Notes under the pieces: generated by a model
The model's input: the letters and a program-made list of their open reading frames with translations, nothing else
Told to the model about the DNA's origin: nothing
The model's database searches: none
Translations under genes and position numbers: made by a program
Assembly: GCA_025056565.1 (NCBI GenBank)
Contig: JANWWA010000001.1
Location: 157,966-221,965, forward strand
DNA from: Chloroherpetonaceae bacterium
Lineage (GTDB): Bacteria; Bacteroidota; Chlorobiia; Chlorobiales; Thermochlorobacteraceae
Length of the DNA stretch: 64,000 bases
Reading direction: 5' to 3'
Shown here: one piece after another, positions 12,738-25,220 of the stretch
Numbering within the stretch: the stretch's first letter is position 1
Layout of the letters: each line of letters opens with the position of its first letter

Positions 12738-13151
12738 TTAGTTTCTAAAGGTGATGGCAAATCGAACTGTGGTGCCTGTTTTAGAAAACTCATAGCGCAC
12801 ATCTTCTGCCAGCTGCTTGATAAGAAACACGCCGCGACCAGAAGGTTTGAGCAAGTTTTCTTCTGCAAGCGGGTTAGGCAACGCATCGGGGTCGAAGCCG
12901 TTGCCTTCATCGTGCACTTCGACCAAGAGACGATTGCCGTCAACAGTGCAGCGCAGCGTTGCCCGTTTTTTAGCATCTAACTTATTGCCGTGCAAAATGG
13001 CGTTGTTTGTAGCTTCGGTAATGACCAGCATCACATCATGCAGGCGCGCTTCAGAGAAGTGATGCTGCGCTGCCAGTTTCTTTACAAACTTCTCAACCCT
13101 ACGAACTTCGGTCAGCTTACTCTTCAGGCGCAGTTCGTAAGATGTCTTCAT
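12738..13151 (-). CDS. RsbW/SpoIIAB-type anti-sigma factor serine kinase (HATPase_c)
   Basis: VITEATNNAILHGN (N box), HDEGNGFD (G1) and SGRGVFLIKQL (G2). The track start at 13190 is GTG, so I prefer the ATG at 13151. Confidence 0.75.
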   Translation of the reverse strand: MKTSYELRLKSKLTEVRRVEKFVKKLAAQHHFSEARLHDVMLVITEATNNAILHGNKLDAKKRATLRCTVDGNRLLVEVHDEGNGFDPDALPNPLAEENLLKPSGRGVFLIKQLAEDVRYEFSKTGTTVRFAITFRN

Positions 13152-13183
13152 CAGCGGGAAATCGGTTGCCTCTGCTGGACGAT

Positions 13184-15208
13184 TCACCACGAGAATTGCA
13201 CGGCTAAGGTTAGATTCGGAATGATACGAATGACTGTGCCGTCCAGTTGCTCAACTTGATACCACCCGCTCGCTTCCAGTTCCGTTTGAGGCGCTGGGTA
13301 GTAAGTAATGCGAGCTGTCGGACCAAAATATAACACTTCTTGCTGTAAGCGTGGCACAGCTCCCAGAAATCCAAACTGCTGGCGCCAGAAGACTCTTACG
13401 CCAGCTGCGACTGCCAGTTGCTCACGGCGTAGCCACGCTTCTATGTGCATCAATCGGTCATTGAACGAGTTGAGTGGTCGTTCTGCAAAATCGCGCCAAA
13501 GTAGCTCTGCTCGTTCATAGATACGTTGGTCATAGAGTAATTTAAGAAAGAATGTCTTGGAAAGGCAAATTTCCGCCGAGTCTAAGAAGTTGAACTGACG
13601 GAAGGAAAAGCTGCGCACGCTTTGCACGGTCTCAAAAGGATACACCGTGTAGTTTGCCAGCACGCCAAATTCTGCATAGTTTCGAAAAGTTTCTCCAACT
13701 CTCCACCATACCGCAGGTGAGAGACGCAAAATGTAATTATCGGTGCTATTTGCGCTTTGCTGACGAAAAATGAACACATTGCGGCTCAGCGCGCCTGACA
13801 GCAAGAGACTTATCCCGAGAAACTTGCTCAGGCGCACACTATCGGACAGTGTTAGGAAATAACTCACCTCATCTCGGTCATCGTTGTTTTCAGGCGAAGG
13901 GGTATCGAAGCGAAAACCGCGCATCTGATACTGCAACGCCAGCCGATTGATAGGCTCGCCTGTTTCATCACGCAAGTGCCACTCTGCGCCACAGACCAGT
14001 GCCGCCACTTCAAAGGCGTTGTTGCGCAGTCGTTCTAATCGCAGTGCCTCTGGCACATTTTGCGAGGCATTTATCGGGCGGTAGGTTTCCGATTGCTGCT
14101 GATAGAGAAAGGAGAAGGATAGCTGCAGCGACGCCGTCCGATACAGTGCACTGGCTTGGGTTAGCAATCGCTGCTGCGCAATTTCATTATCATATAAACT
14201 GCGAGAGATGTCCAAGAATTGCTGGCTATTTTCACGCCTTACCAGTCGGTAGCGCAGCTCGAAGCGTGCTACCACTGACAGTGCTTCAGTTAAGTGATAG
14301 GAGATCGAATCGAGGGTATAGAGGTTTTGATCTACGCGCCGCTCGACGGCCACTTGTGGATTTTCGGGGCTACCAGTAAAAAAGACATTCGAGAAAAAAT
14401 CGCGCTGCACCCTTTCGTAGCCGCCTGACAGAGAAAGCGACGCCGCATCACTGTAATTTTGACGCAACACCAGCGTCGCCAGTGCGGTTTGATTGCGACG
14501 AGGACTTAAAAATTCTTCGCTTAGGTTTAGACTGGAGAATGCGGATAGACTACCGACCCTTAGACTGTCGAGCTGCGCACTGAGCGCATAAGTTATGCCA
14601 CTGGATGGCTGAGCCAACTGCTGTTCGGCTTTTGCACCCGCCAGCACACTGAGCAAAAGTAGTGAAGACGGTGCAAAGCCCATTCCCAACGCCACTGCAT
14701 TCGCCAATGCATCGTTGCGAAATAGACTGCGGCTATCGGAGAGTGTAAAGTTTGACACTTGTGCCCGCACTGTCCAGCCACTCTGAATTTGATGCACCAG
14801 CTCTGCCTGAAACTGATTTTCGTCGCGCACCGCCTGCTCACGCGCTACGCCCGCAAACTCTGCAAGGTTTGATGTAAATGCCTCGCTTGCGGACAGTTGC
14901 CAACCACCGAAGTCATGGAAGAATCCTGCTCGCGCACGCCAAAAGTAAGTATTCAAAAATCGCTCAAATGAGACACTTACGCTGCGACTTGTCAGCGCTC
15001 CGAATGCTGTCTTTGGGCGTAGCGAATCTTGGGCTTGTAAGGCAGTGGGAAGCCAAAGTATCCACAGCGCTGCAACTAGCCACCTTCGCAGCTTATGTCC
15101 GTAGGCGTGCCTTATCGCGCCGCTTCGGCTTTCACTTCGGAGACAAAGTTGCACGTGCGGTGAGAACCATCGCAGAATGGCTTTTTCTGACTCGCACCAC
15201 AGCGGCAA
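13184..15208 (-). CDS. predicted outer-membrane beta-barrel protein, family unknown
   Basis: Signal-peptide-like RRWLVAALWILWLPTALQAQD, alternating beta-strand-like sequence throughout, and a C-terminal ...LTLAVQFSW aromatic end. The start is uncertain (ATG at 15208 or GTG at 15154). Either start overlaps the CDGSH gene. Confidence 0.55.
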   Translation of the reverse strand: MPLWCESEKAILRWFSPHVQLCLRSESRSGAIRHAYGHKLRRWLVAALWILWLPTALQAQDSLRPKTAFGALTSRSVSVSFERFLNTYFWRARAGFFHDFGGWQLSASEAFTSNLAEFAGVAREQAVRDENQFQAELVHQIQSGWTVRAQVSNFTLSDSRSLFRNDALANAVALGMGFAPSSLLLLSVLAGAKAEQQLAQPSSGITYALSAQLDSLRVGSLSAFSSLNLSEEFLSPRRNQTALATLVLRQNYSDAASLSLSGGYERVQRDFFSNVFFTGSPENPQVAVERRVDQNLYTLDSISYHLTEALSVVARFELRYRLVRRENSQQFLDISRSLYDNEIAQQRLLTQASALYRTASLQLSFSFLYQQQSETYRPINASQNVPEALRLERLRNNAFEVAALVCGAEWHLRDETGEPINRLALQYQMRGFRFDTPSPENNDDRDEVSYFLTLSDSVRLSKFLGISLLLSGALSRNVFIFRQQSANSTDNYILRLSPAVWWRVGETFRNYAEFGVLANYTVYPFETVQSVRSFSFRQFNFLDSAEICLSKTFFLKLLYDQRIYERAELLWRDFAERPLNSFNDRLMHIEAWLRREQLAVAAGVRVFWRQQFGFLGAVPRLQQEVLYFGPTARITYYPAPQTELEASGWYQVEQLDGTVIRIIPNLTLAVQFSW

Positions 15209-15324
15209 AGAAAAATTGTCGGTTTAGACAGCTGAAACGCTGTTCCTGCCGCATCACAAAGTTCAAATGTATCGCCCTCAACTTTGATTGGGCCGTTGTT
15301 TAGCACGGTGATTTTAACAGGCAT
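15112..15324 (-). CDS. CDGSH iron-sulfur domain protein
   Basis: 70 aa with CRCGASQKKPFCDGSH, the CDGSH 2Fe-2S signature. Confidence 0.85.
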   Translation of the reverse strand: MPVKITVLNNGPIKVEGDTFELCDAAGTAFQLSKPTIFLCRCGASQKKPFCDGSHRTCNFVSEVKAEAAR

Positions 15325-15395
15325 TGCGAAGAAGGTTAGTCAGTTGTTTATTGTTTTCCCTGTTTAAACACTTTGCCGCGGCTCCACCGTTTGCC

Positions 15396-16661
15396 TTAGG
15401 TTGATTGTGGTAATGCTGCCGCTCGTTTTGTTTCGCCATTTGTTAGATACATCTGCCGCATATCGTAGCCCGTCGGGCGCTGGAAGATGCGTAGCTCAAA
15501 TTCTGGCACGATGGCAATAATATGGTTGAAAATTTCGGCTTGGACATTTTCATAGTCTACAAACGATGTCTCTGTCGTGAACGCCCAAATCTCAATAGGT
15601 ATGCCGTTCTCGGTTGGCTGCAAGTGCCGCACATTGAAGGTCATTCCTTTGTGAATCTTGGGGTGATTTTTAATGTAGTTGAACACATATGCACGAAAGG
15701 CGCCTAAGTTGGTAATTCGGCGTTCATCAACCAAACCTGCGCTGCCTTCTTGCACTGCTTCCCTGCGCCGCTGCTCAATATATTCTGCGATATACTTGAT
15801 CTTTGAGAGGCGCTCCATTGCGGCTTCATCAAGAAACTTTACCGAATGAATGTCAATGTTGATGGAACGCTTGATGCGCCGTGCCCCCATTTCAAACACT
15901 GACCGCCAGTTTTTGAACGATTCGCTAATGAGGGCATATGTTGGAATAATGGTGAAAGTATTGTCCCAATTTTGCACTCGCACCGTAGTTAGTGCAATTT
16001 CTGTAACAGTGCCATCGGCGTCGTATTTTGGCATCACAATCCAATCGCCTATTGCCACCAAGCGATTTGTTGCAATCTGAATGCCAGCGGTGAAGCCAAG
16101 CAGTGCATCACGAAAAATAATGAGCAACACGGCAGTAATTGCACCCAGACCTGAGAGCAAGACTAAGGGCGACTCGTTCAGCAAAATCGCTAACCCAAAG
16201 ATTGCACCTACGAAGACTGCAACAATCTGGAAGACCTGAACAATAACTTTGATGGGGAACTCTTTGGTTGATTTTGGTGACGACAGGTAAAGCGCTGCAG
16301 TTGCATTGAGCAGCGAAAACGACACCGCCACAGCTACCCAGATGATGTAAAAATCATTCAGGCGACCAAGAAAAGCCACTATATCTGGTGAGTTCGGAAA
16401 GAAAAACGGTGCCCCGACCTGCAGCACCACTGCTGGGGCTAAATGTGCCACACGGTCAAAGGTTTTGTGCTCCACTAACACATCGTCCCACTTCGATGTG
16501 CTCATCTGAGCCAGTCTATGAATCCATGCTAAGAGAATACGCCGCGCAATGAAATGGGAAGCGTAGCAGACCACAATCAAGAAAATAAACCCGAGCGCCA
16601 GCGTTATGAGATTTGCATACTTGATTCCAGCCGATTCAAGCCACTGTTGGAGTGCGTCCAT
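15396..16661 (-). CDS. mechanosensitive ion channel family protein (MscS-like)
   Basis: Multiple N-terminal TMs, then the block IATNRLVAIGDWIVM...DGTVTEIALTTVRVQNWDNTFTIIPT typical of the MscS beta domain. Confidence 0.8.
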   Translation of the reverse strand: MDALQQWLESAGIKYANLITLALGFIFLIVVCYASHFIARRILLAWIHRLAQMSTSKWDDVLVEHKTFDRVAHLAPAVVLQVGAPFFFPNSPDIVAFLGRLNDFYIIWVAVAVSFSLLNATAALYLSSPKSTKEFPIKVIVQVFQIVAVFVGAIFGLAILLNESPLVLLSGLGAITAVLLIIFRDALLGFTAGIQIATNRLVAIGDWIVMPKYDADGTVTEIALTTVRVQNWDNTFTIIPTYALISESFKNWRSVFEMGARRIKRSINIDIHSVKFLDEAAMERLSKIKYIAEYIEQRRREAVQEGSAGLVDERRITNLGAFRAYVFNYIKNHPKIHKGMTFNVRHLQPTENGIPIEIWAFTTETSFVDYENVQAEIFNHIIAIVPEFELRIFQRPTGYDMRQMYLTNGETKRAAALPQST

Positions 16662-16819
16662 CGTAATTCTTGAGGTTACGGTGTTCCAAATTGTTGGCGT
16701 GCAAGTTAGCCAAAAATATCCAATTATTTCTGGGCACTCTCACCACAGCTCTTAATTACATTGCAGGGGTTTTGTATATTGTCTCTGGTTGTGTTGCCAA
16801 CATTTGGAAAGGAGTAGCT

Positions 16820-18190
16820 ATGTCGCCCAGAGAGTTCATTGACTTTTATGCGCTATTAGGCGTTGCGCCGACTGCAACCGATGATGAAATTCGCCGTGCC
16901 TACATTGAGCGCATTAAGGCAACTCACCCCGATACGATGCCCCACTGTTCAGCTCACACGAAAGCCTCAGCTGAGGAAACAGCTCGCTTACTCAATCTTG
17001 CCAAAGAGACGCTGCTGTCACCCACTCGTCGCCAAGCCTTTGATGCTCTTTACCGCGCCAAAAAAGGCTACAGCCACTGCTCGCAAGGCGACACTTCTAA
17101 GGCACGGCGCGCTGAGTTTTACCGCAGTCTGCGCCTCACAGAGTCAATGCAGCGCATCAATCCGGGCTATGTGCTTTTCGGCATAGGTGTGCTCTACATT
17201 TTCTTCGCCTCAGTGGGACTTATCTGGCGTGGTGTGATGACGCAAGGCGGTGTGGTGCGTATTGCTGAAGCGGAACCTGTTACGACACTTTCAAAACCGC
17301 TTGCTGAGTATCGTCTGGCATCCACTGCTGTAGCCTTTGCACCTTGGGCTGACACATTGCCGACTGTGCTTTGCTCCACACCAGACGGCATTGCGCTCTA
17401 TGCTCTCTCCACAGGGCAAGTTCGTGCTCAATATAGGCTTCCATTTTCACCTTCGCTGCTTTGTCTCAGTGCGACTGTGTGGGTTGCCAGTGATGGTGCG
17501 CGCTTAGCAGCTGGGGCGCACAAGGCTCAGACACCGCCTCAGCTTTTTTCAGGTCATCAAAAGCCACTTTGTGCCCTTGCGCTTTCACCTGACCACACAC
17601 GCTTTGCTTCCGCCGCTGATGATCACACCATCAAGGTATGGAACTTAGAGACCGGTCAGTTAGAGCGCTCCTTTGTCTCGGGTGTTCAACCTGCTCGCTC
17701 GCTAGCCTACTCGCCCGATGGGAAATTCATTGCCTTCACAGACGATCGCTGGGTTAAAATTTGGATGTGGAAAAATGGAGCTGTTCGCCGTCTTACACAG
17801 CACCGTGACAGATTGCTTCACGTGTGCTGCTCTCCCCACTGGGTTGCCTCTGCCAGCGAAGGCGGCGAGATTCGCCAGACCCATTTGGCTACTGGTGCGG
17901 CCAAGCATCTTGGTCAAGAATCTGGGCAAATTACCAAGATGATTTACAGCCCTGATTACCGCTTCTTGCTCACTGCCAATTCTGACGGACGATTGCGCCT
18001 CTATGATGCCGCAGCCTTCAAGCTACTTGAAGTCTGGAACGCCCACTTGGGTAAGGCTCTGGAAATCGGTTTCAGTGATGATGGCAAGCACATTTACTCT
18101 TTCGGCGAAGACCAAGTGGTTCGCATTTGGGCTGTGCCCAATGCCTCACATTCGTCAAACTCTGCTCAACTGCAATCACCCGAACTATGA
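16820..18190 (+). CDS. J-domain / single TM / WD40-repeat protein (paralog 1)
   Basis: DFYALLGV...DEIRRAYIERIKATHPD (J domain with HPD), TM YVLFGIGVLYIFFASVGLIW, and WD40 units (DDHTIKVWNLETGQ, DQVVRIWAV). SD AAGGAG at 16809-16814. The track start at 16670 is a TTG extension. Confidence 0.8.
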   Translation: MSPREFIDFYALLGVAPTATDDEIRRAYIERIKATHPDTMPHCSAHTKASAEETARLLNLAKETLLSPTRRQAFDALYRAKKGYSHCSQGDTSKARRAEFYRSLRLTESMQRINPGYVLFGIGVLYIFFASVGLIWRGVMTQGGVVRIAEAEPVTTLSKPLAEYRLASTAVAFAPWADTLPTVLCSTPDGIALYALSTGQVRAQYRLPFSPSLLCLSATVWVASDGARLAAGAHKAQTPPQLFSGHQKPLCALALSPDHTRFASAADDHTIKVWNLETGQLERSFVSGVQPARSLAYSPDGKFIAFTDDRWVKIWMWKNGAVRRLTQHRDRLLHVCCSPHWVASASEGGEIRQTHLATGAAKHLGQESGQITKMIYSPDYRFLLTANSDGRLRLYDAAAFKLLEVWNAHLGKALEIGFSDDGKHIYSFGEDQVVRIWAVPNASHSSNSAQLQSPEL

Positions 18191-19182
18191 AAATTACCTT
18201 CTTTGATTCACATACCTTTGAGCGAGACTTCCTTATCAAGGCTGCTCGCAATCGGTATGAGCTTAATTTCCTAAGGATTCAGCTCACGACTGAAACCGTT
18301 GAGTTGGCCAAAGGCTCAAATGTGGTTTCGCTTTTCGTCAATGATGATGGCTCTGCGCCGATTTTGGAAAAATTGGCTTCGTTTGGCATCAAGCATATTG
18401 CCTTGCGCTCCGCTGGATTCAACCATGTTGACCTTGACAAAGCCCGCGAATTAGGCATACGGGTTGCTAATGTGCCTGCTTATTCACCATTTGCGGTGGC
18501 AGAGCACACGGTCGCCTTGATGTTGGCCCTCAATCGCAAGTTGCCACGTGCTTACAACCGCGTGCGCGACTTGAACTTCTCGCTCACTGGCTTAGTCGGC
18601 TTTGATATGAACGGCAAAACTGCAGGCATCATTGGTACTGGAAAAATTGGGTCAGTTGTTGTTAAAATTCTGCACGGCTTTGGCTGCCGCTTGCTTGGCT
18701 ACGACATATACCCCAATGAATCACTCACAAAGGAATATGGTCTGGAGTATGTCGACCTCGATACACTCTTTCGGGAAAGCCACATCATTACACTGCACAC
18801 CCCACTTACGCCTGAGACAAAGTATCTCATCAATGAACACACGATTGCTAAAATGCGCGATGGGGTGATGCTTATCAACACCAGTCGTGGCGGCCTTGTG
18901 AAGACTGAGGCTGCACTCGATGGCTTACGCTCTGGCAAGATTGGTTATTTGGGCTTAGATGTCTATGAGGAAGAAAAGGGGCTGTTCTTTTACGACCGCT
19001 CCAGCTATGTTTTGCAAGATGAAATTTTAGCACAACTGCTCTCTTTCCCTAATGTCATCGTCACCAGCCATCAAGGCTTTCTGACGGACACTGCCCTGCG
19101 CAACATTGCCGATACCACCTTTGAGACAATTGATGCTTGGGCATGCGGCAAGGAAAGTCCAAATGAGCTTGTCATGAAGTAG
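18187..19182 (+). CDS. ldhA: D-lactate dehydrogenase (D-isomer 2-hydroxyacid dehydrogenase)
   Basis: Colinear with E. coli LdhA as I recall it (FVNDDGS..., ALRSAGFNHVDL, VPAYSP.AVAEH, GKTAGIIGTGKIG, NTSRGGL, HQGFLT). ATG at 18187 overlaps the upstream stop (ATGA). Confidence 0.9.
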   Translation: MKITFFDSHTFERDFLIKAARNRYELNFLRIQLTTETVELAKGSNVVSLFVNDDGSAPILEKLASFGIKHIALRSAGFNHVDLDKARELGIRVANVPAYSPFAVAEHTVALMLALNRKLPRAYNRVRDLNFSLTGLVGFDMNGKTAGIIGTGKIGSVVVKILHGFGCRLLGYDIYPNESLTKEYGLEYVDLDTLFRESHIITLHTPLTPETKYLINEHTIAKMRDGVMLINTSRGGLVKTEAALDGLRSGKIGYLGLDVYEEEKGLFFYDRSSYVLQDEILAQLLSFPNVIVTSHQGFLTDTALRNIADTTFETIDAWACGKESPNELVMK

Positions 19183-19223
19183 TCTTTCTTCAACACATTT
19201 CGACACTGTGAAGGAGAAACACT

Positions 19224-20603
19224 ATGAACAAGCAAGACCGCTTTGTGGACTACTATGCGGAGCTTGGGCTCAAGCCTAATGCAACAGCTGATGAAATTCG
19301 TGCAGCTTACAAGGAGTTGATTAAAGAAACCCACCCTGATAAATTTCAGACTGCATCGCCCCGTGAGCGTGAGCGTGCTGAACGCCGTGCTCAGCGCCTC
19401 AATGAAGCCAAGAATACACTCCTTGACGAAGAAAAACGCCGTCAATACGATGCTCTCTACCAGCAGCGCCTCTCAGAAGCAATGGCTTTTGCCGCAAAAG
19501 CAGGTTACGATGGCTCTTCCTACAGCGAGTATGCATCGCGAATGGCTGAAATTGAGCGCTGGAACGCTGCTGCAGGTGCGCGCTCTCGTGTCCGCCCACT
19601 CACCTTTGTTATCTTATTTTTGCTTGCTGCAATTTCGCTTTTCTGGCGCTTTGTCAACCCCGAAGAATTCGGTAAGCCCGCGCCTGCAGCAGAAGTGCCC
19701 ACTGTTACGCTTCCAGAGGAGATTTATCGCGCTGGTGCAGCGCTGCAATCTATTGCTTTACCAAACGATGGTAAGTACGCCGCCGCTGTAGCCAGCTACA
19801 AAGGCATTGTGATGTGGCGCACCGCACAGCCTGAGCAAATGTGGTTTGGTTATGCTGATACCAGCGCCGTTTCACTTGCAGCGTTTGACCATCGACTGGC
19901 ACTGGGCACGATGCGCGGGCTTTTGCATCTCTTCGAACTCAAAGGCGACTCGCTCATCTTGCAGCGCACTCTCTCTGCTCACCAGAGCGTTATCACGTCC
20001 GTCAATTTCAGCCATGATGGCAAGCTGCTTGTTACTACCAGTTGGGACAAAACTGCAAAGGTTTGGCACGCTGAAACGGGCGAACTGCTTAGAACTCGAA
20101 TGGGGATTGCCTTCCCTATCTACTCAGCGGTTTTCACAGGCGACGACAAACATATCGCCTTCACCAACGACCAGCAAGTAATGGTCTGGAATTGGCGAGA
20201 GGGACAACTTCGCAACATCGGTTTGCACCGCAAGCGCCTCCTTGCAATGGATGCTGATAGCAATTGGGTGCTTTCGTCTGGCGAAGACCGTGTCGTTCGG
20301 CAAACTCACCTTGCTACAGGCACTGTGCGCACCACACAACCAGAGCCTATGACCATCACTGCCGTAGCGTTTAGCCCAAAAGGTCATATTTTTGCGACGG
20401 CAAATGCCGATGGATTTGTGCGGATTTACTCAGCCAAGACTTGTCAAAAGTTAGATGTTATTGCAGCCCACGCACCTGAATCGGGAAAAGGCAAAGCCAC
20501 TTCCGTCAAGTTTTCGCCCGACGGTCTGCTGCTTTACTCAGCTGGCACAGATAGCACCATCAAAGCGTGGGATATGCGACCGTATTCAACCGCTTTGCCG
20601 TGA
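19224..20603 (+). CDS. J-domain / single TM / WD40-repeat protein (paralog 2)
   Basis: DYYAELGL...DEIRAAYKELIKETHPDKF, TM LTFVILFLLAAISLFWRFV, and WD40 units (DKTAKVWHAETGE, DSTIKAWDM). SD AAGGAG at 19211-19216. Confidence 0.8.
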   Translation: MNKQDRFVDYYAELGLKPNATADEIRAAYKELIKETHPDKFQTASPRERERAERRAQRLNEAKNTLLDEEKRRQYDALYQQRLSEAMAFAAKAGYDGSSYSEYASRMAEIERWNAAAGARSRVRPLTFVILFLLAAISLFWRFVNPEEFGKPAPAAEVPTVTLPEEIYRAGAALQSIALPNDGKYAAAVASYKGIVMWRTAQPEQMWFGYADTSAVSLAAFDHRLALGTMRGLLHLFELKGDSLILQRTLSAHQSVITSVNFSHDGKLLVTTSWDKTAKVWHAETGELLRTRMGIAFPIYSAVFTGDDKHIAFTNDQQVMVWNWREGQLRNIGLHRKRLLAMDADSNWVLSSGEDRVVRQTHLATGTVRTTQPEPMTITAVAFSPKGHIFATANADGFVRIYSAKTCQKLDVIAAHAPESGKGKATSVKFSPDGLLLYSAGTDSTIKAWDMRPYSTALP

Positions 20604-20714
20604 TGGTAGCCCATCACCTTTGTGCGATAGCGCACAGCTTGCTTTGCTGGCACTCGTAAAGGTGCTTGCTGGAGAAGCATCTTTTCATTGATTTTAACTC
20701 AAATTGATTCAAAT

Positions 20715-21944
20715 ATGCGCCAGTTATTTTGCTTTATTCTTGCGCTACTCTTTCTGCAAGCAGAGCTTGCGTTTGCGCAGCGGGTCTATACCAAGCGCGA
20801 CAATAGCCAAGTGCGCGATGGCGCTGGCTCTTACTACAAGCTCATTGCAACACTGAGCGCTAACACCCCCCTTACGATGCTCGAAAAAGCTGACCGCTGG
20901 GTGAAGGTGGAACTGCCTGACAAGAAGACACGTGGCTGGATTGCCGAAAACTGCTTAGAAGAAAAGCAAGTGCCCAGCACGCGCGTCATCACCAAGTGGA
21001 GCACGGCGCAAGCCTCTCGTGCTGCTGTAGCAGCGGCAGTCAAAGGCTTCGCAAAACGCTCCAAGAAATTCACCGATAAAACGCTGGACATCGTGCTTGA
21101 CCAGACGTTTAATGAATTTTCCGAAGCTGAGTTCCGAGCGTTCAAGCGGGAGTTGCAGGCACAAGGTGAGCCAACCAAAGTATCGTTCGCTGCGCTGGGT
21201 CTTGAACCACCGATGTATGATGCCCGGCTCAATGAACTTGCAGTGGGCGCAGGCGTCGCGGCTCGCCTTGCTTCTGAATTTGGTGTCATTCAAAATCCGC
21301 GACTTAGTAAGTATGTCAATATGATTTGTGCCGCTATCGTGGAGCAAACACCATTCTACGATTGGGATTTTAGCGTCTTTATTTTGCAAGACGAAACCAT
21401 CAACGGGTTTGCTTGCCCTGGCGGCTATATTTTTCTCACCAAAGGTATGATTGATGCTTGCCAAGATGAATCAGAGCTGGCGGCTGTCATTGCGCATGAA
21501 ATTGCGCATGTCATTCGCCGACACGGAATGGAAGAACTCACAAAGCGCATTGCAAAAATCCGAGCTGCTGAAGCCTTTGCCGAGCTCGAGCAAGAAATGG
21601 AAGAAGAAATGGATGAAAGCGAGCAAGAGCTTGAGGAAATTGCCGCTGAATCATATGAGCGTGCCATTCGCAAGCGTCTACTCAAATACGAGTTTGAAGC
21701 CGACCGCTACGGTGCTTATCTTGCTGCACAAGCAGGCTATGACCCATTTGGCATTATTCGCATCAGTGAAACGGTTGCGCTGGCGCAAGCAAAGATGGCT
21801 GAACCCAAAGTATATAGCTCCGAATACTTCGCACCTGACGATGCTCGCGAGCGCATAAAGCAAATCCGGGCATTCGTTTCTACGCACTACAAGCCCACTA
21901 CTAAAGGTCGCTTCAAAGAGCGTTTTATGCGCAACACGCGCTAA
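20715..21944 (+). CDS. secreted SH3b-domain plus M48 family zinc metalloprotease
   Basis: Signal peptide MRQLFCFILALLFLQAELAFA, an SH3b-like region (VRDGAGSYYKLIATL...RWVKVEL...GWI) and the HEXXH motif in AVIAHEIAHVIRRHG. The track start at 20688 is TTG. Confidence 0.75.
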   Translation: MRQLFCFILALLFLQAELAFAQRVYTKRDNSQVRDGAGSYYKLIATLSANTPLTMLEKADRWVKVELPDKKTRGWIAENCLEEKQVPSTRVITKWSTAQASRAAVAAAVKGFAKRSKKFTDKTLDIVLDQTFNEFSEAEFRAFKRELQAQGEPTKVSFAALGLEPPMYDARLNELAVGAGVAARLASEFGVIQNPRLSKYVNMICAAIVEQTPFYDWDFSVFILQDETINGFACPGGYIFLTKGMIDACQDESELAAVIAHEIAHVIRRHGMEELTKRIAKIRAAEAFAELEQEMEEEMDESEQELEEIAAESYERAIRKRLLKYEFEADRYGAYLAAQAGYDPFGIIRISETVALAQAKMAEPKVYSSEYFAPDDARERIKQIRAFVSTHYKPTTKGRFKERFMRNTR

Positions 21945-21956
21945 GCACAGTTTGTG

Positions 21957-22012
21957 GGGCGGATTTGACCGAGCGGCGTTATGCTTTGCCAAAATCCGCC
22001 CTTTGCGTCTTT
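21957..22012 (+). terminator. putative terminator after the M48 gene
   Basis: GGGCGGATTT (21957-21966) pairs with AAATCCGCCC (21992-22001) and is followed by tttgcgtctttt. The loop is large (25 nt). Confidence 0.4.
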
Positions 22013-22097
22013 TGCCCCTTAGTCTGTCACTTCCTCAGCCTTGCAGATTTAACAATTTTTTAACTCCTATTTGGAAGTCAAAACTTCTTTGCTTGCG

Positions 22098-22105
22098 TAT
22101 TTTTG
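22098..22105 (+). promoter_or_regulatory. candidate -7 promoter box (TAttTTTG)
   Basis: Exact TAnnTTTG match 30 nt upstream of the ATG at 22136. Confidence 0.35.
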
Positions 22106-22135
22106 CTCCAGCTTGAAGCGAGTATAACCATTGCA

Positions 22136-22609
22136 ATGAGTATGATGCGCGCTGCCATGGCTGGAGTTCTGCTGCTATTGCTCGGTGTTCAGAAGCAAGA
22201 AGTTGTATTTCGAAATGTGGTTTGGGGAATGGAGCCTGCCCAAGTGCTTGCCGTAGAAACTGCTCAGCTTATCAAAGAAAGCCCCGGACGACTTTTTTAT
22301 AGAGGCGAAGAGGAAGGTTACCCTGCGATTATTGTCTACAGCTTCGTAGAAAATAAGCTCATTCAGGCCACTTGCATCTTTCAGTATGAGGGCACCGTTT
22401 CCACTAGCGACCTTATCAAGGATTTGGAGCACAAACTTACACGCAAGTTTGGTCAGCCCGAAATCGTAAAAGCAAACTACAAGGCTGTCTGGGGCACTTC
22501 TTCCACCCACATTAGTCTCAACCTTACCGATGAGCAGAAAGTTGTGCTAAATTACCTAAGCAGCCAGCTTGCCAAAGAGTTTGCTGGCAAGTGGAAGTCC
22601 TCAATGTAA
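22136..22609 (+). CDS. hypothetical secreted protein
   Basis: MSMMRAAMAGVLLLLLGV looks like a signal peptide. No family recognised. The track start at 22103 is TTG. Confidence 0.4.
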   Translation: MSMMRAAMAGVLLLLLGVQKQEVVFRNVVWGMEPAQVLAVETAQLIKESPGRLFYRGEEEGYPAIIVYSFVENKLIQATCIFQYEGTVSTSDLIKDLEHKLTRKFGQPEIVKANYKAVWGTSSTHISLNLTDEQKVVLNYLSSQLAKEFAGKWKSSM

Positions 22610-22655
22610 TCACTTTGCTTGCCTTAGACTTCAAGGTTGTTTTGCTATGCCTGCC

Positions 22656-22687
22656 TAAAACAGAAAGGCAGCACCTCTTGTGCTGCC
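22656..22687 (-). terminator. rho-independent terminator of the small OMP gene
   Basis: GGCAGCAC ctctt GTGCTGCC (22667-22687). On the minus strand it is followed by TTTCTGTTTT. It sits between convergent genes. Confidence 0.55.
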
Positions 22688-22708
22688 CATATGCCCACTA
22701 TGCTCTAC

Positions 22709-23230
22709 TCAGAAACGCACACCGCCGCCAATCTGGAAATTTGTTCCCGACGAAATTAGCAGTTTAGCTTGTGCGTAGATTGCCACTGGTCCCACTGGGA
22801 ACTCCGCACCGCCGAACAGATTTAAGCCTGCATTGGTCGAGCTCGAGGTTTGACGCTGCGTGCCCCCACCGAATGTTGGTACATCAACTGAGACAGATGA
22901 AAAGGCGATTAGCAAACCTGCCCCTGCATATGGTGCAATTGGAGATTTAGGGATATCAAAAATATAGGCGACATCACCATGCACGAAAATGCTGAGGGCA
23001 CTGCCACCGGGCGGACTGGATATAAAGATGTAATCCGCAGTAGGATTTATGGAAAGCGTGCCAAAGCCGGGAACTTTGACCGGCACCGCTACACCCGCAC
23101 CGAGCGAGAAATTCCCACCGTTGGTATAGATACCCAAGCGGGCATCAGGACGTATCTGCGCCGAGAGATCCGTTGCTACGACTGCACTCAGCACAGCCAT
23201 CGCAGAACCAAGAAAGAAGAGCTGTTTCAT
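22709..23230 (-). CDS. small outer-membrane beta-barrel protein
   Basis: Signal peptide ending LSAQ, Gly/aromatic-rich alternating strands, and a C-terminal ...QIGGGVRF. Confidence 0.6.
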   Translation of the reverse strand: MKQLFFLGSAMAVLSAVVATDLSAQIRPDARLGIYTNGGNFSLGAGVAVPVKVPGFGTLSINPTADYIFISSPPGGSALSIFVHGDVAYIFDIPKSPIAPYAGAGLLIAFSSVSVDVPTFGGGTQRQTSSSTNAGLNLFGGAEFPVGPVAIYAQAKLLISSGTNFQIGGGVRF

Positions 23231-23275
23231 AGTTTGATGTGTTTAGGTTACGTGATTGAGCCTCAAAGAACAACT

Positions 23276-23527
23276 TTACTTCTCGGTTTGTCCGCCATCC
23301 GTTGAGGTTTGCTGCCGCGCCCAGCGCTCAATGTAGCGAGCTAATTCTTCCACACTGCTGAAGATGACTGTCTCTCCCGACGCAGAGCGCTGCAGCTGAA
23401 TTTTCAGAGAGCTTGTCTCTGACTCGCTATATGCAAATAGCTTCATTACAAACGTCTCTCGCTTCAGCATCGCTTTGCGACAATGGTGTGCAATTTTGCA
23501 GACAAGATGTAGCACTCGAGTAACCAA
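23276..23527 (-). CDS. hypothetical small protein (start uncertain)
   Basis: ORF only, with internal Met candidates (MLKRETFVMKLF...). No family recognised. Confidence 0.25.
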   Translation of the reverse strand: MVTRVLHLVCKIAHHCRKAMLKRETFVMKLFAYSESETSSLKIQLQRSASGETVIFSSVEELARYIERWARQQTSTDGGQTEK

Positions 23528-23670
23528 TGAGTAACCACCCCGATGGCGAAGGCATTGGGCTCAAGAGGTAACTAAGCAAATTGCGATGGTAGAATGCGCG
23601 CAAAGCAGAAATCTCTCACTCTCGTCTTATCATTTTCAGTGGGCGAGGGTATTCTTCACAGCAGAATAGC

Positions 23671-25023
23671 TTAGGAGTATGATAGCCTTTCTGCTGTCAG
23701 GATTTGGCGTGCCGGAATGTTTCGCAACTCAGGAATCCACAGTTTAATGAATGCCGCTTCGGGGTCGTACATTTCCGCTTGGCGCACAGGGTTGAACACG
23801 CGGTTTTCTCGTGGGTCGTTACCAATGCCTGCTACATAGTTCCAATTGCCATAGTTGCTACACACATCGTAATCGACCAACATTGACTCAAAGTACTCAG
23901 CGCCTAGTCGCCAGTCGATTTGCAGATAATGCACCAAATAACTGGCAACATTTTGTCGCCCTCGATTCGACATAAACCCTGTTGCAGCTAGCTCACGCAT
24001 ATTGGCATCAATGAACGGCTGTCCTGTACGTCCTTCTACCCATCTTTGGAACAATACTCTATCGCGAGACCACTTCTTTGGCTGCCCCTTAATGCCGAAT
24101 TTGTGGAACAAGCGATTACCATATTTGAGCGCAACAAAGCGGAAAAAATCACGCCAGATAAGCTCGAAAATGAGCCAGTAGGTGGAGTCATTAGCAATGC
24201 GCTTGGCTTCGTAGCGCTTAATTTCTTCGTAAATTTTTCGTGGTGACAGACACCCTAAAGCCAGCCATGCCGAAAATTTTGAGGAGTAATCTGCACCAAT
24301 TAAGCCATTGCGAGTCTCTTTGTAGTTTCTGAGTAAATCCTTCTGCCAGAAATATTCTTCTAAGCGCCTCAGACCTTCACGCTCTCCGCCCTTGAAGTAA
24401 AAAGCTGCACGCGGCTCAGGCTGCGGCGGCTGTATTCCTAACTGCTCAAGCGTCGGCAACGCCCCTACCTCTATGCTGGTGGGCTTACGCAGCGATTTCG
24501 GCGCGGGGAACGTGGCACGCACAGTTGCGCGCTTTTCGCATTCCTTGCGGAACTGTGTGAACACGTCGGGCAAGTGCTCAATAGACATCGGCAAATCGTT
24601 CAAGTGATAAAGCGTGCTGCCCCAATACTCTTTGGTTTGAATGCCTATGGCCTGCAGATTTTTTCGGAGTGCGGCTTCCACACGCAGCTCTTCGCTGGTT
24701 ACTTCTCGGTGGAAATACACAAAAGAGACGCCTGCGACCTTGGCAAGCTCAGGCACAATCTCCTCTGGCTTACCGATGCGAAAAATTAGCTCCCCTCCCT
24801 TTTGGCGAACTTGCTCACGCAAATCTGCGAGACTTTCAAGCAAGAATTTTGCTCTGAACTTCCCCATCTTGGGAAAGCCTGATGGAAGCGTGCCCAAAAG
24901 ACGCTCATCGAGACAATAGACCAGCAAAGTATCGGGAGAGCTACTTAGCGCCGCAGTGAGGGCTTCGTTATCGTGCAAGCGCAAATCATTGCGCAGCCAA
25001 ACAAGATTTTTCCAAGACGACAT
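23671..25023 (-). CDS. cryptochrome DASH / photolyase family protein
   Basis: LVWLRNDLRLHDNEAL N-terminus, and the C-terminal FAD-binding blocks TGQPFIDANMRELAATGFMSNRGRQNVASYL and DYDVCSNYGNWNY. The track start at 25137 is TTG, and an ATG lies at 25023. Confidence 0.85.
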   Translation of the reverse strand: MSSWKNLVWLRNDLRLHDNEALTAALSSSPDTLLVYCLDERLLGTLPSGFPKMGKFRAKFLLESLADLREQVRQKGGELIFRIGKPEEIVPELAKVAGVSFVYFHREVTSEELRVEAALRKNLQAIGIQTKEYWGSTLYHLNDLPMSIEHLPDVFTQFRKECEKRATVRATFPAPKSLRKPTSIEVGALPTLEQLGIQPPQPEPRAAFYFKGGEREGLRRLEEYFWQKDLLRNYKETRNGLIGADYSSKFSAWLALGCLSPRKIYEEIKRYEAKRIANDSTYWLIFELIWRDFFRFVALKYGNRLFHKFGIKGQPKKWSRDRVLFQRWVEGRTGQPFIDANMRELAATGFMSNRGRQNVASYLVHYLQIDWRLGAEYFESMLVDYDVCSNYGNWNYVAGIGNDPRENRVFNPVRQAEMYDPEAAFIKLWIPELRNIPARQILTAERLSYS

Positions 25024-25220
25024 ACACCCGCTTTTTACCACATAACTCAAAAATTGTCGAATCAGGTTCAACAACAGAGTGTCGTGTTCGCATTTTATTG
25101 CTCGTTCTGAAACAAGGGCGTAGAGTCGGTAACACAATTGCGTGCTACCGATGCCGCATCTGTTTACTGCTCTTCTCCGCCATACCCTTTACTTGGTCGG
25201 TCTAATTTGCCAAGAAGTCG

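Follow-up and report, generated by a model that had tools for sequence, protein, structure and literature searches.

What do two copies of a J-domain protein do on either side of a gene for an LdhA-type dehydrogenase? The question is raised by a locus in a 64,000-nucleotide (nt) stretch of DNA (hereafter the window) from contig JANWWA010000001.1 of a Chloroherpetonaceae bacterium, a lineage within the Chlorobiales (Chlorobiota). It has three parts: (i) what the two proteins are; (ii) on which side of the inner membrane their C-terminal WD40 propellers lie; and (iii) whether their linkage to ldhA, and to a protease gene that follows, reflects a common function. We consider it rather probable that the two gene products are class C J-domain proteins that span the inner membrane once (bitopic) and whose propeller would be periplasmic, docking there and thereby positioning the recruitment of DnaK. 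The domain architecture is evident from sequence and model, while the topology itself is predicted. The two genes and their parts, other than the transmembrane (TM) helices, are as follows (P numbers denote protein database entries, L numbers genomes or metagenomic contigs).

16809..16814, + strand: AAGGAG Shine-Dalgarno-like motif of paralog 1, ending 5 nt before the ATG
16820..18190, + strand: paralog 1, 456 residues; J domain, one TM helix and seven-bladed WD40 propeller; upstream-copy clade (P0121-P0125 and the upstream genes of L001-L003)
16841..17044, + strand: J domain of paralog 1, residues 8-75, HPD tripeptide at 36-38; PF00226 E 1.2e-12, 48.2 bits against a cutoff of 27.8
17303..18133, + strand: WD40 propeller of paralog 1, residues ~162-438; 28 strands, seven blades
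19211..19216, + strand: AAGGAG Shine-Dalgarno-like motif of paralog 2, ending 7 nt before the ATG
19224..20603, + strand: paralog 2, 459 residues; J domain, one TM helix and seven-bladed WD40 propeller; downstream-copy clade, nearest to the single-copy orthologs
19248..19451, + strand: J domain of paralog 2, residues 9-76, HPD tripeptide at 37-39; PF00226 E 2.8e-16, 59.8 bits against a cutoff of 27.8
19719..20573, + strand: WD40 propeller of paralog 2, residues ~166-450; 28 strands, seven blades, with a predicted local distance difference test score (pLDDT) mostly >90

Both open reading frames (ORFs) begin with a J domain that exceeds the Pfam gathering score, and the HPD tripeptide, situated between helices II and III, is invariant in 17 of 17 aligned family members. 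The J domain of paralog 2 aligns end to end with that of Thermus thermophilus DnaJ2 (9dyv, 4j7z; E 3e-10), relative to which it carries a six-residue insertion after HPD. Classes A and B are marked by a G/F region, a zinc finger and the DnaJ C-terminal domain; a Pfam scan found no match in either paralog to PF01556 or PF00684, and DnaJ equivalog models matched only residues ~8-100, with scores far under their cutoffs. By every sequence criterion tested, both paralogs are class C J-domain proteins; both J domains appear competent, and stimulation of an Hsp70 ATPase is predicted.

The C-terminal regions match the WD40 family PF00400 (E 8e-27 in paralog 1 and 1.3e-31 in paralog 2; 93 and 108 bits against a cutoff of 27), and all 17 members keep a set of WD40 signature residues unchanged (several Trp, two Asp, two His). 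AlphaFold2 models run with the family alignment (mean pLDDT 82.4 for paralog 1 and 83.3 for paralog 2) show the same succession in both proteins: the helices of the J domain, a linker helix modelled with low confidence, a long helix that coincides with the TM segment (residues 115-141 in paralog 1, 124-144 in paralog 2), a disordered spacer and a 28-strand propeller, for the most part at pLDDT >90. When the modelled propeller of paralog 2 was compared with the PDB using Foldseek, the best matches were G-beta subunits (E ~1e-22, target TM-score ~0.8), which characterizes it only as a generic G-beta-like propeller.

The two proteins are colinear over their full length in BLASTP (33% identity, E 6e-62) and are thus true paralogs rather than the product of a chance match between repeats. 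A longer, TTG-started ORF of paralog 1 would begin at 16670; we place the start at the ATG at 16820 because the orthologs begin at that Met. Only five ORFs of at least 60 residues in the window have AAGGAG 3-12 nt before the start codon. The initial annotation had described two paralogous ORFs, each with an HPD-containing J domain at its N-terminus, a WD40 region and a strong AAGGAG motif that is rare in the window, and it is borne out in all of these respects, the models adding a count of seven blades each.

A TM helix was called where one 19-residue segment had a mean Kyte-Doolittle hydropathy (KD19) >2.0 and a summed Hessa insertion energy <0, both being simple scales. Each paralog has a single such segment, in agreement with the one hydrophobic helix noted earlier.

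17165..17227, + strand: predicted TM helix of paralog 1, residues 116-136, GYVLFGIGVLYIFFASVGLIW; KD19 2.29; Hessa sum -1.2, against +6.9 for the next-best segment
19599..19655, + strand: predicted TM helix of paralog 2, residues 126-144, LTFVILFLLAAISLFWRFV; KD19 2.33; Hessa sum -1.4, against +8.3 for the next-best segment

Every one of the 17 members has exactly one segment of this kind (KD19 2.07-2.62, Hessa sum -0.2 to -2.2 kcal/mol), the next-best segment scoring +5 to +12 kcal/mol. The sequence of the helix varies across the family while its hydrophobicity is kept, as expected of a lipid-facing TM segment. No N-terminal signal peptide was found in the family, the first 40 residues belonging to the charged J domain. 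Hsp70 and ATP are cytoplasmic, and a J domain is of use only there; as the proteins have just one TM-grade helix and lack a signal peptide, the propeller should be periplasmic. The charges that flank the helix in paralog 2 (+4/-1 on the N side, +1/-3 on the C side) are consistent with this orientation, as are those of the paralog-2, single-copy and P0015/16 clades, where the N flank ranges from +2 to +6 and the C flank is net negative except in P0016, in which it is neutral. The calculation supports an N-in/C-out topology rather than proving it, and the orientation is predicted.

Between the helix and the propeller lies a Pro/Ala/Glu-rich spacer. At the C-terminal, presumably periplasmic, end of the helix, a W-R-x-V motif (17225-17236 and 19644-19655) is invariant in the whole family (17/17) despite an identity of only ~33% between the two paralog clades, and in the paralog-1 clade a further ~15 residues beyond it are also almost invariant (WRGVMTxGGVVRIAxAEP). 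This conservation suggests that W-R-x-V and the stretch that follows form a functional juxtamembrane element.

An extracytoplasmic WD40 domain is plausible on two counts. Among the 104 closest WD40-only homologs, a crude rule assigns a signal, anchor or TM-like segment to 59, compared with 20 of 56 control ORFs of the window; many of the 59 are signal-peptide proteins or kinase-TM-WD40 fragments. Kinases with a single span and predicted periplasmic WD40 arrays, moreover, have been documented and are common in Planctomycetota (PMC11032199).

The two proteins are already present in the databases as P0001 and P0121, identical entries named 'MAG: DnaJ domain-containing protein [Chloroherpetonaceae bacterium]', MAG standing for metagenome-assembled genome. 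Full-length relatives comprise P0001-P0016 for paralog 2 and P0121-P0125 for paralog 1, and lower matches are WD40-only; public names are generic ('DnaJ domain-containing protein', 'WD40 repeat protein', 'hypothetical protein'). In a scan of one genome per GTDB species, full-length matches occurred in nine Chlorobiales MAGs only (L001-L009), the remaining matches covering the J domain alone or with part of the linker and TM helix, and never the propeller. A HMMER search of 1.84 billion representatives with a full-length profile returned six full-length, single-stretch members among its top 150 (P0013, P0010, P0015, P0122, P0016 and P0275), which argues that the homologous family is narrow; these top 150 were dominated by giant proteins with multiple WD40 propellers, and the search does not address non-homologous J-TM-WD40 architectures. 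A query with the 166-residue J-linker-TM module returned only J-domain proteins of <=300 residues, missing the family itself, and is uninformative on other C-terminal domains. As far as its sequences place it, the family is confined to uncultured Chloroherpetonaceae/Thermochlorobacter-type Chlorobiales MAGs. One member, P0016 (= L008, contig JACMJS010000262.1, 15506 bp), is labelled Rhizobacter sp. in one record and Chlorobiales bacterium ES-bin-17 in another, the former probably being a mislabel; its gene is cut by the contig end.

The architecture is accordingly not that of a common, named family. Thousands of class C J-domain protein architectures are known (PMC10410713), and WD40 is not mentioned in the main text of this 2023 PNAS survey; full-text literature searches likewise found no description of a bacterial J-TM-WD40 protein. 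What is new here is the joining of a J-TM layout to a WD40 propeller, found nowhere else within a survey that was limited as to non-homologous cases. The broader claim of the initial annotation, that no characterized bacterial protein of this layout is known, stands for the J-TM-WD40 combination and must be narrowed for the layout as such, since a J domain, one TM helix and an outer domain have precedents in ZipN/ARC6 and in a protein of an Armatimonadota MAG.

Cyanobacterial ZipN/Ftn2 and plastid ARC6 resemble the paralogs in that an N-terminal J or J-like domain in the cytoplasm or stroma is linked by one TM helix to a C-terminal part on the opposite side. ZipN differs, however, in its length (798 residues), its long cytoplasmic FtsZ-binding region, a TM helix near 608-630 and a C-terminal part that is not WD40; the J-like domain of ARC6 is, moreover, considered HSP70-independent (PMC6391411). 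Neither shows any sequence relationship to the paralogs outside the J domain, and with the TM helix of the paralogs at ~116-144 of ~457 residues and a WD40 domain after it, we rejected an identity with ZipN/Ftn2/ARC6. The Armatimonadota protein (L060, contig JANNCV010000024.1, 7965-9512; 515 residues) starts with an HPD-containing J domain, to which a Pro/Lys-rich linker, a single hydrophobic helix and a C-terminal region are joined; in this last region, a duplicated segment gives weak, sub-threshold BamE-like matches. On its sequence, the protein is an independent example of a layout with J domain inside, one TM helix and an outer domain.

Membrane-anchored J-domain proteins of other kinds were also compared. 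Like the paralogs, DjlA and mitochondrial Pam18/Tim14 use a single-span inner-membrane anchor to hold a J domain at the cytoplasmic (matrix) face and recruit Hsp70 locally (DjlA: PMC8215388). In both, the order is the reverse of that in the paralogs, with the TM helix N-terminal, the J domain C-terminal and no WD40 domain; DjlA has a TerB-like domain and, unlike the paralogs, no large periplasmic domain. The NCBIfam DjlA model (PRK09430) reaches only 17.9 and 28.9 bits on the paralogs, against a cutoff of 162, and in the J region only; with their J domain N-terminal, an identity with DjlA was rejected. Escherichia coli DjlB and DjlC share with the paralogs an N-terminal J domain and a single TM helix in the plasma membrane; they are tail-anchored, however, with essentially nothing in the periplasm, and are paired with a nearby-encoded Hsp70, HscC (PMC8215388), for which reasons this identity was rejected as well. 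The genes around the paralogs in the conserved block described below include none for an Hsp70. Ser/Thr kinases of Planctomycetota, cyanobacteria and other groups combine a cytoplasmic effector, one TM helix and a periplasmic WD40 domain as the paralogs would, although the effector is a kinase instead of a J domain and the arrays are often longer (PMC11032199); single-span kinases are among the nearest WD40-only homologs of the paralogs. A separate group of proteins of ~220-250 residues, in which one to three predicted TM helices follow an N-terminal J domain, was seen in uncultured gut Bacilli/Tenericutes MAGs (L010, L011, L014, L015, L018, L024, L042 and L046); these matched via the J domain and part of the linker and TM helix and were translated with table 11, whereas some of the lineages may use table 4.

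The third part of the question concerns the genes with which the paralogs are linked.

18187..19182, + strand: LdhA-type NAD-dependent D-lactate / D-2-hydroxyacid dehydrogenase, 331 residues; its ATG overlaps the stop of paralog 1
20715..21944, + strand: secreted SH3 + M48 zinc metalloprotease with signal peptide MRQLFCFILALLFLQAELAFA, SH3_3 domain and M48 domain with HEIAH; fourth gene of the block

The dehydrogenase matches PF02826 and PF00389 and, over residues 1-329, the structures of fermentative D-lactate dehydrogenases (5z20, 5z1z/3wx0 and 4cuj; E 1e-107 to 1e-109). It lies under the NCBIfam cutoffs of vanH_gen (231.7 versus 540) and PRK08605 (209.5 versus 356). The label 'LdhA-type' is justified on these matches, with pyruvate specificity putative. 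The protease gene begins 111 nt past the stop of paralog 2, or 85 nt if counted to the first in-frame TTG (20688). Its product is similar to BepA in having an M48 domain with HExxH, a signal peptide and an envelope context, but it carries an N-terminal SH3 domain in place of the C-terminal tetratricopeptide repeats (TPR) of BepA; with weak similarity (85.6 bits against an NCBIfam cutoff of 570; PDB 6ait, E 9e-13) and no TPR, an identity with BepA was rejected.

Comparison of the window proteins with L001-L009 by tblastn determined that the order paralog 1, ldhA, paralog 2, M48 is kept in two Ca. Thermochlorobacter genomes, L001 (Ca. Thermochlorobacter aerophilum, contig PHFL01000010.1, 56968-74317) and L002, and in L003 (Thermochlorobacteriaceae bacterium GBChlB); it is also found in L077 and L078, metagenomic contigs that carry P0003, in the second of which a 395-residue gene at the contig end occupies the position of a putative paralog 1. 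Identities to the window are 42-58% for paralog 1, 70-84% for ldhA, 54-73% for paralog 2 and 58-83% for the M48 protein. None of the other 56 window ORFs (>=100 residues) had a match in the +/-8 kb flanks of L001-L003, from which it follows that the four-gene block is conserved and its surroundings are not. The three-gene unit of the initial annotation thus needs to be extended: paralog 1, ldhA and paralog 2 are indeed conserved together, and the SH3 + M48 gene always follows. The ATGA overlap of the paralog 1 stop with the ldhA start (18187-18190) and the 41-nt gap between ldhA and paralog 2 (19224) can be read directly from the sequence as described; as a general feature the ATGA coupling fails, since the orthologous blocks have gaps of ~12-60 nt on both sides of ldhA and the overlap is specific to this genome. 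Promoter, terminator and Rfam scans of the region yielded nothing decisive, the Rfam scan (13000-24000) giving no match.

In a neighbour-joining tree, all upstream copies, that of GBChlB included, form one clade, and the downstream copies adjoin the single-copy clade. Because GBChlB is represented in both the upstream and the downstream clade, the duplication predates the Thermochlorobacter/GBChlB split, and both copies were kept. The separate clades, with intact ORFs at the identities given above, indicate that both copies are under selection. The single-copy proteins (L004-L009) are ~43% identical to paralog 2 and ~30% to paralog 1.

The explanation that we favor is as follows. The J domain (~75 residues) and a linker of ~45 residues would stay in the cytoplasm, one helix would cross the membrane, and the spacer would be followed by the seven-bladed propeller in the periplasm. 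No client-binding domain is present in the cytoplasmic part, and the propeller therefore most likely serves in targeting or recognition. Its putative partner, on which it would dock, would be exposed to the periplasm, as a periplasmic protein or as a membrane protein with a domain there. Docking would set where on the inner membrane face the J domain triggers ATP hydrolysis by DnaK, which might then clamp cytoplasmic segments of proteins adjoining the anchor. The mechanism would be analogous to that of DjlA and to that of Pam18/Tim14, which works at the mitochondrial import channel; Pam18, too, docks to a partner through a small domain across the membrane. The ancestral single gene was duplicated in the Thermochlorobacter-type lineage, and the copies are kept in a same-strand four-gene block. 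Since the conserved neighbour, the M48 protease, also works in the periplasm, we prefer envelope-protein quality control as the setting, and the SH3 + M48 protease is the likelier functional partner than LdhA. It is more likely that ldhA is co-regulated than that it is physically coupled. Ca. Thermochlorobacter lives in hot-spring mats in which night brings anoxia and fermentation, and several anoxygenic phototrophs increase their chaperone expression at that time (PMC11788075). Co-expression of ldhA with the paralogs in this nightly phase would fit but is speculation, and the data of that diel metatranscriptome study contain no usable entry for the block genes.

Several observations weigh against this explanation. 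The orientation is a prediction from simple scales plus a model. In the paralog-1 clade, the 15-residue flanks of the helix are nearly balanced (+2 to +4 versus +2 to +3); over 25 residues, as read from the sequence, the N side keeps more positive charges (6 versus 3). An invariant Arg also stands at the presumed periplasmic end of the helix. Of the tether proposed in the initial annotation, with its J domain in the cytoplasm and its propeller in the periplasm, the missing signal peptide, the single TM-grade helix and the charge bias speak in favor, while the bias is weak in the paralog-1 clade and the topology has the status of a prediction. Classical J-domain proteins have their client-binding domain on the same side as Hsp70, and two proteins of other bacteria, P0047 (787 residues) and P0101 (773 residues), fuse the nucleotide-binding domain (NBD) of an Hsp70 (PF00012 profile positions 1-374) to a seven-repeat WD40 region with no TM segment, so that a cytoplasmic partnership of WD40 and Hsp70 is conceivable. 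As to the linkage, the six single-copy Chlorobiales MAGs (L004-L009) and the P0015 contig have neither ldhA nor the M48 gene beside the J-TM-WD40 gene. The neighbours in L004-L009 are instead a divergent serA-type phosphoglycerate dehydrogenase gene or Fur, alcohol dehydrogenase and ferritin genes, and on the P0015 contig DUF885, MbnP and MauG genes follow; the ancestral protein cannot, then, have had either ldhA or M48 as an obligatory partner. Finally, the gap between paralog 2 and the M48 gene contains two weak terminator-like hairpins, and the protease may thus have a transcript of its own; terminator-like hits were no more frequent than in shuffled sequence.

The strongest rival, to which we give close to an even chance, is that there is no functional coupling to ldhA, and that the bracket is a by-product of tandem duplication or insertion in the Thermochlorobacter/GBChlB ancestor, kept via a shared promoter. 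Such a history would fit the varied neighbours of the single-copy orthologs, the ATGA overlap that orthologous blocks have not kept, and LdhA itself, a soluble cytoplasmic enzyme with close, ordinary fermentative homologs. However, gene order and strand have been kept although the block proteins have diverged to 42-70% identity and all flanking genes differ, an argument that selection has acted on the linkage, at the least as one transcription unit. The bracketing of ldhA, as first described, is therefore a property of the two-copy lineage, and it is absent beside the single-copy genes.

A second rival, in which the propeller is a periplasmic sensor, we think unlikely. Ligand binding would alter the oligomeric state or conformation, the J domain and DnaK would switch a cytoplasmic regulator, and LdhA and the M48 protease would be outputs or members of the same regulon. 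There is a precedent in that overproduced DjlA, together with DnaK, activates the Rcs phosphorelay. The invariant juxtamembrane W-R-x-V and the highly conserved post-TM segment of the paralog-1 clade would suit a signalling protein, two paralogs could make a heteromeric receptor, the layout is receptor-like as in the kinase-TM-WD40 proteins (PMC11032199), and a role of DjlA and DnaK in Rcs signalling is discussed in PMC11709261. The conserved block, though, includes no regulator gene (sigma/anti-sigma factor or response regulator) and the cytoplasmic part is minimal; the sensor and docking explanations overlap, moreover, and the present data fit both alike.

Least probable of the readings considered is one that keeps J domain and propeller together in the cytoplasm, with the helix serving as a monotopic or interfacial anchor or for oligomerization and the propeller, as in most class C J-domain proteins, passing cytoplasmic or membrane-proximal clients to DnaK: client binding on the side of Hsp70 is the usual logic of J-domain proteins (PMC8215388), and the TM-less NBD fusions, the weakly asymmetric flanks of the paralog-1 clade and the ~43% of nearest WD40-only homologs without an export signal by the crude rule would be in line with it, but 19-21 unbroken hydrophobic residues of negative insertion energy in all 17 members exceed an amphipathic in-plane helix in length and hydrophobicity and fall short of a hairpin, the helix is conserved in hydrophobicity and not in sequence, the charge bias is clear in most clades, and the spacer, as read from its sequence, resembles periplasmic tethers.

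Other genes near the block were recorded as follows. A MscS-type mechanosensitive channel gene (15396-16661, - strand; PF00924, PF21082), divergent from paralog 1, was rejected as a block member, as it is not syntenic in L001-L003. Four of the single-copy genomes encode a coiled-coil protein of 227-273 residues, 18 nt upstream of the J-TM-WD40 gene and on the same strand (L004 7254-7982, L006 7168-7983, L007 13-696 and L009 585-1406), with a variable count of DEMKxFK repeats and a conserved C-terminal domain; having no homolog in the window or in L001-L003, it was rejected as a partner. Within the window, a 70-residue CDGSH iron-sulfur domain protein (15112-15324, - strand; PF09360, E 1.2e-17) overlaps the 5' end of the longest-ORF call for a 674-residue gene (13184-15208, - strand), which has no Pfam match at E <=0.001, and a photolyase/cryptochrome family gene (PF00875, PF03441) lies at 23671-25137 on the - strand.

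A bolder form of the favored explanation, which we regard as decidedly unlikely, is that the paralogs constitute a trans-envelope device that ties the ATPase cycle of DnaK to the periplasm, either in that DnaK, by clamping or entropic pulling at the short cytoplasmic tether, mechanically regulates a periplasmic complex which the propellers hold and which acts with the SH3 + M48 protease, or in that periplasmic occupancy of the propellers gates the recruitment of DnaK and so informs the cytoplasmic proteostasis network of the state of the envelope. The periplasm has neither ATP nor Hsp70, and only pieces of the connection between cytoplasmic chaperones and envelope proteostasis are known, among them DjlA/Rcs and membrane-located sigma-32; to our knowledge, no bacterial example of such chaperone coupling across the inner membrane has been characterized. 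With a narrow, uncultured lineage and a predicted topology, the value of the finding is limited for now. If the device were real, a Gram-negative cell could use, or inform, an ATP-driven chaperone across its inner membrane. A periplasmic protein-binding propeller, as the sole other substantial domain, would make a clean, minimal link between chaperone and envelope, and the family would supply a bacterial counterpart of the Pam18-type logic: dock outside, recruit Hsp70 inside.

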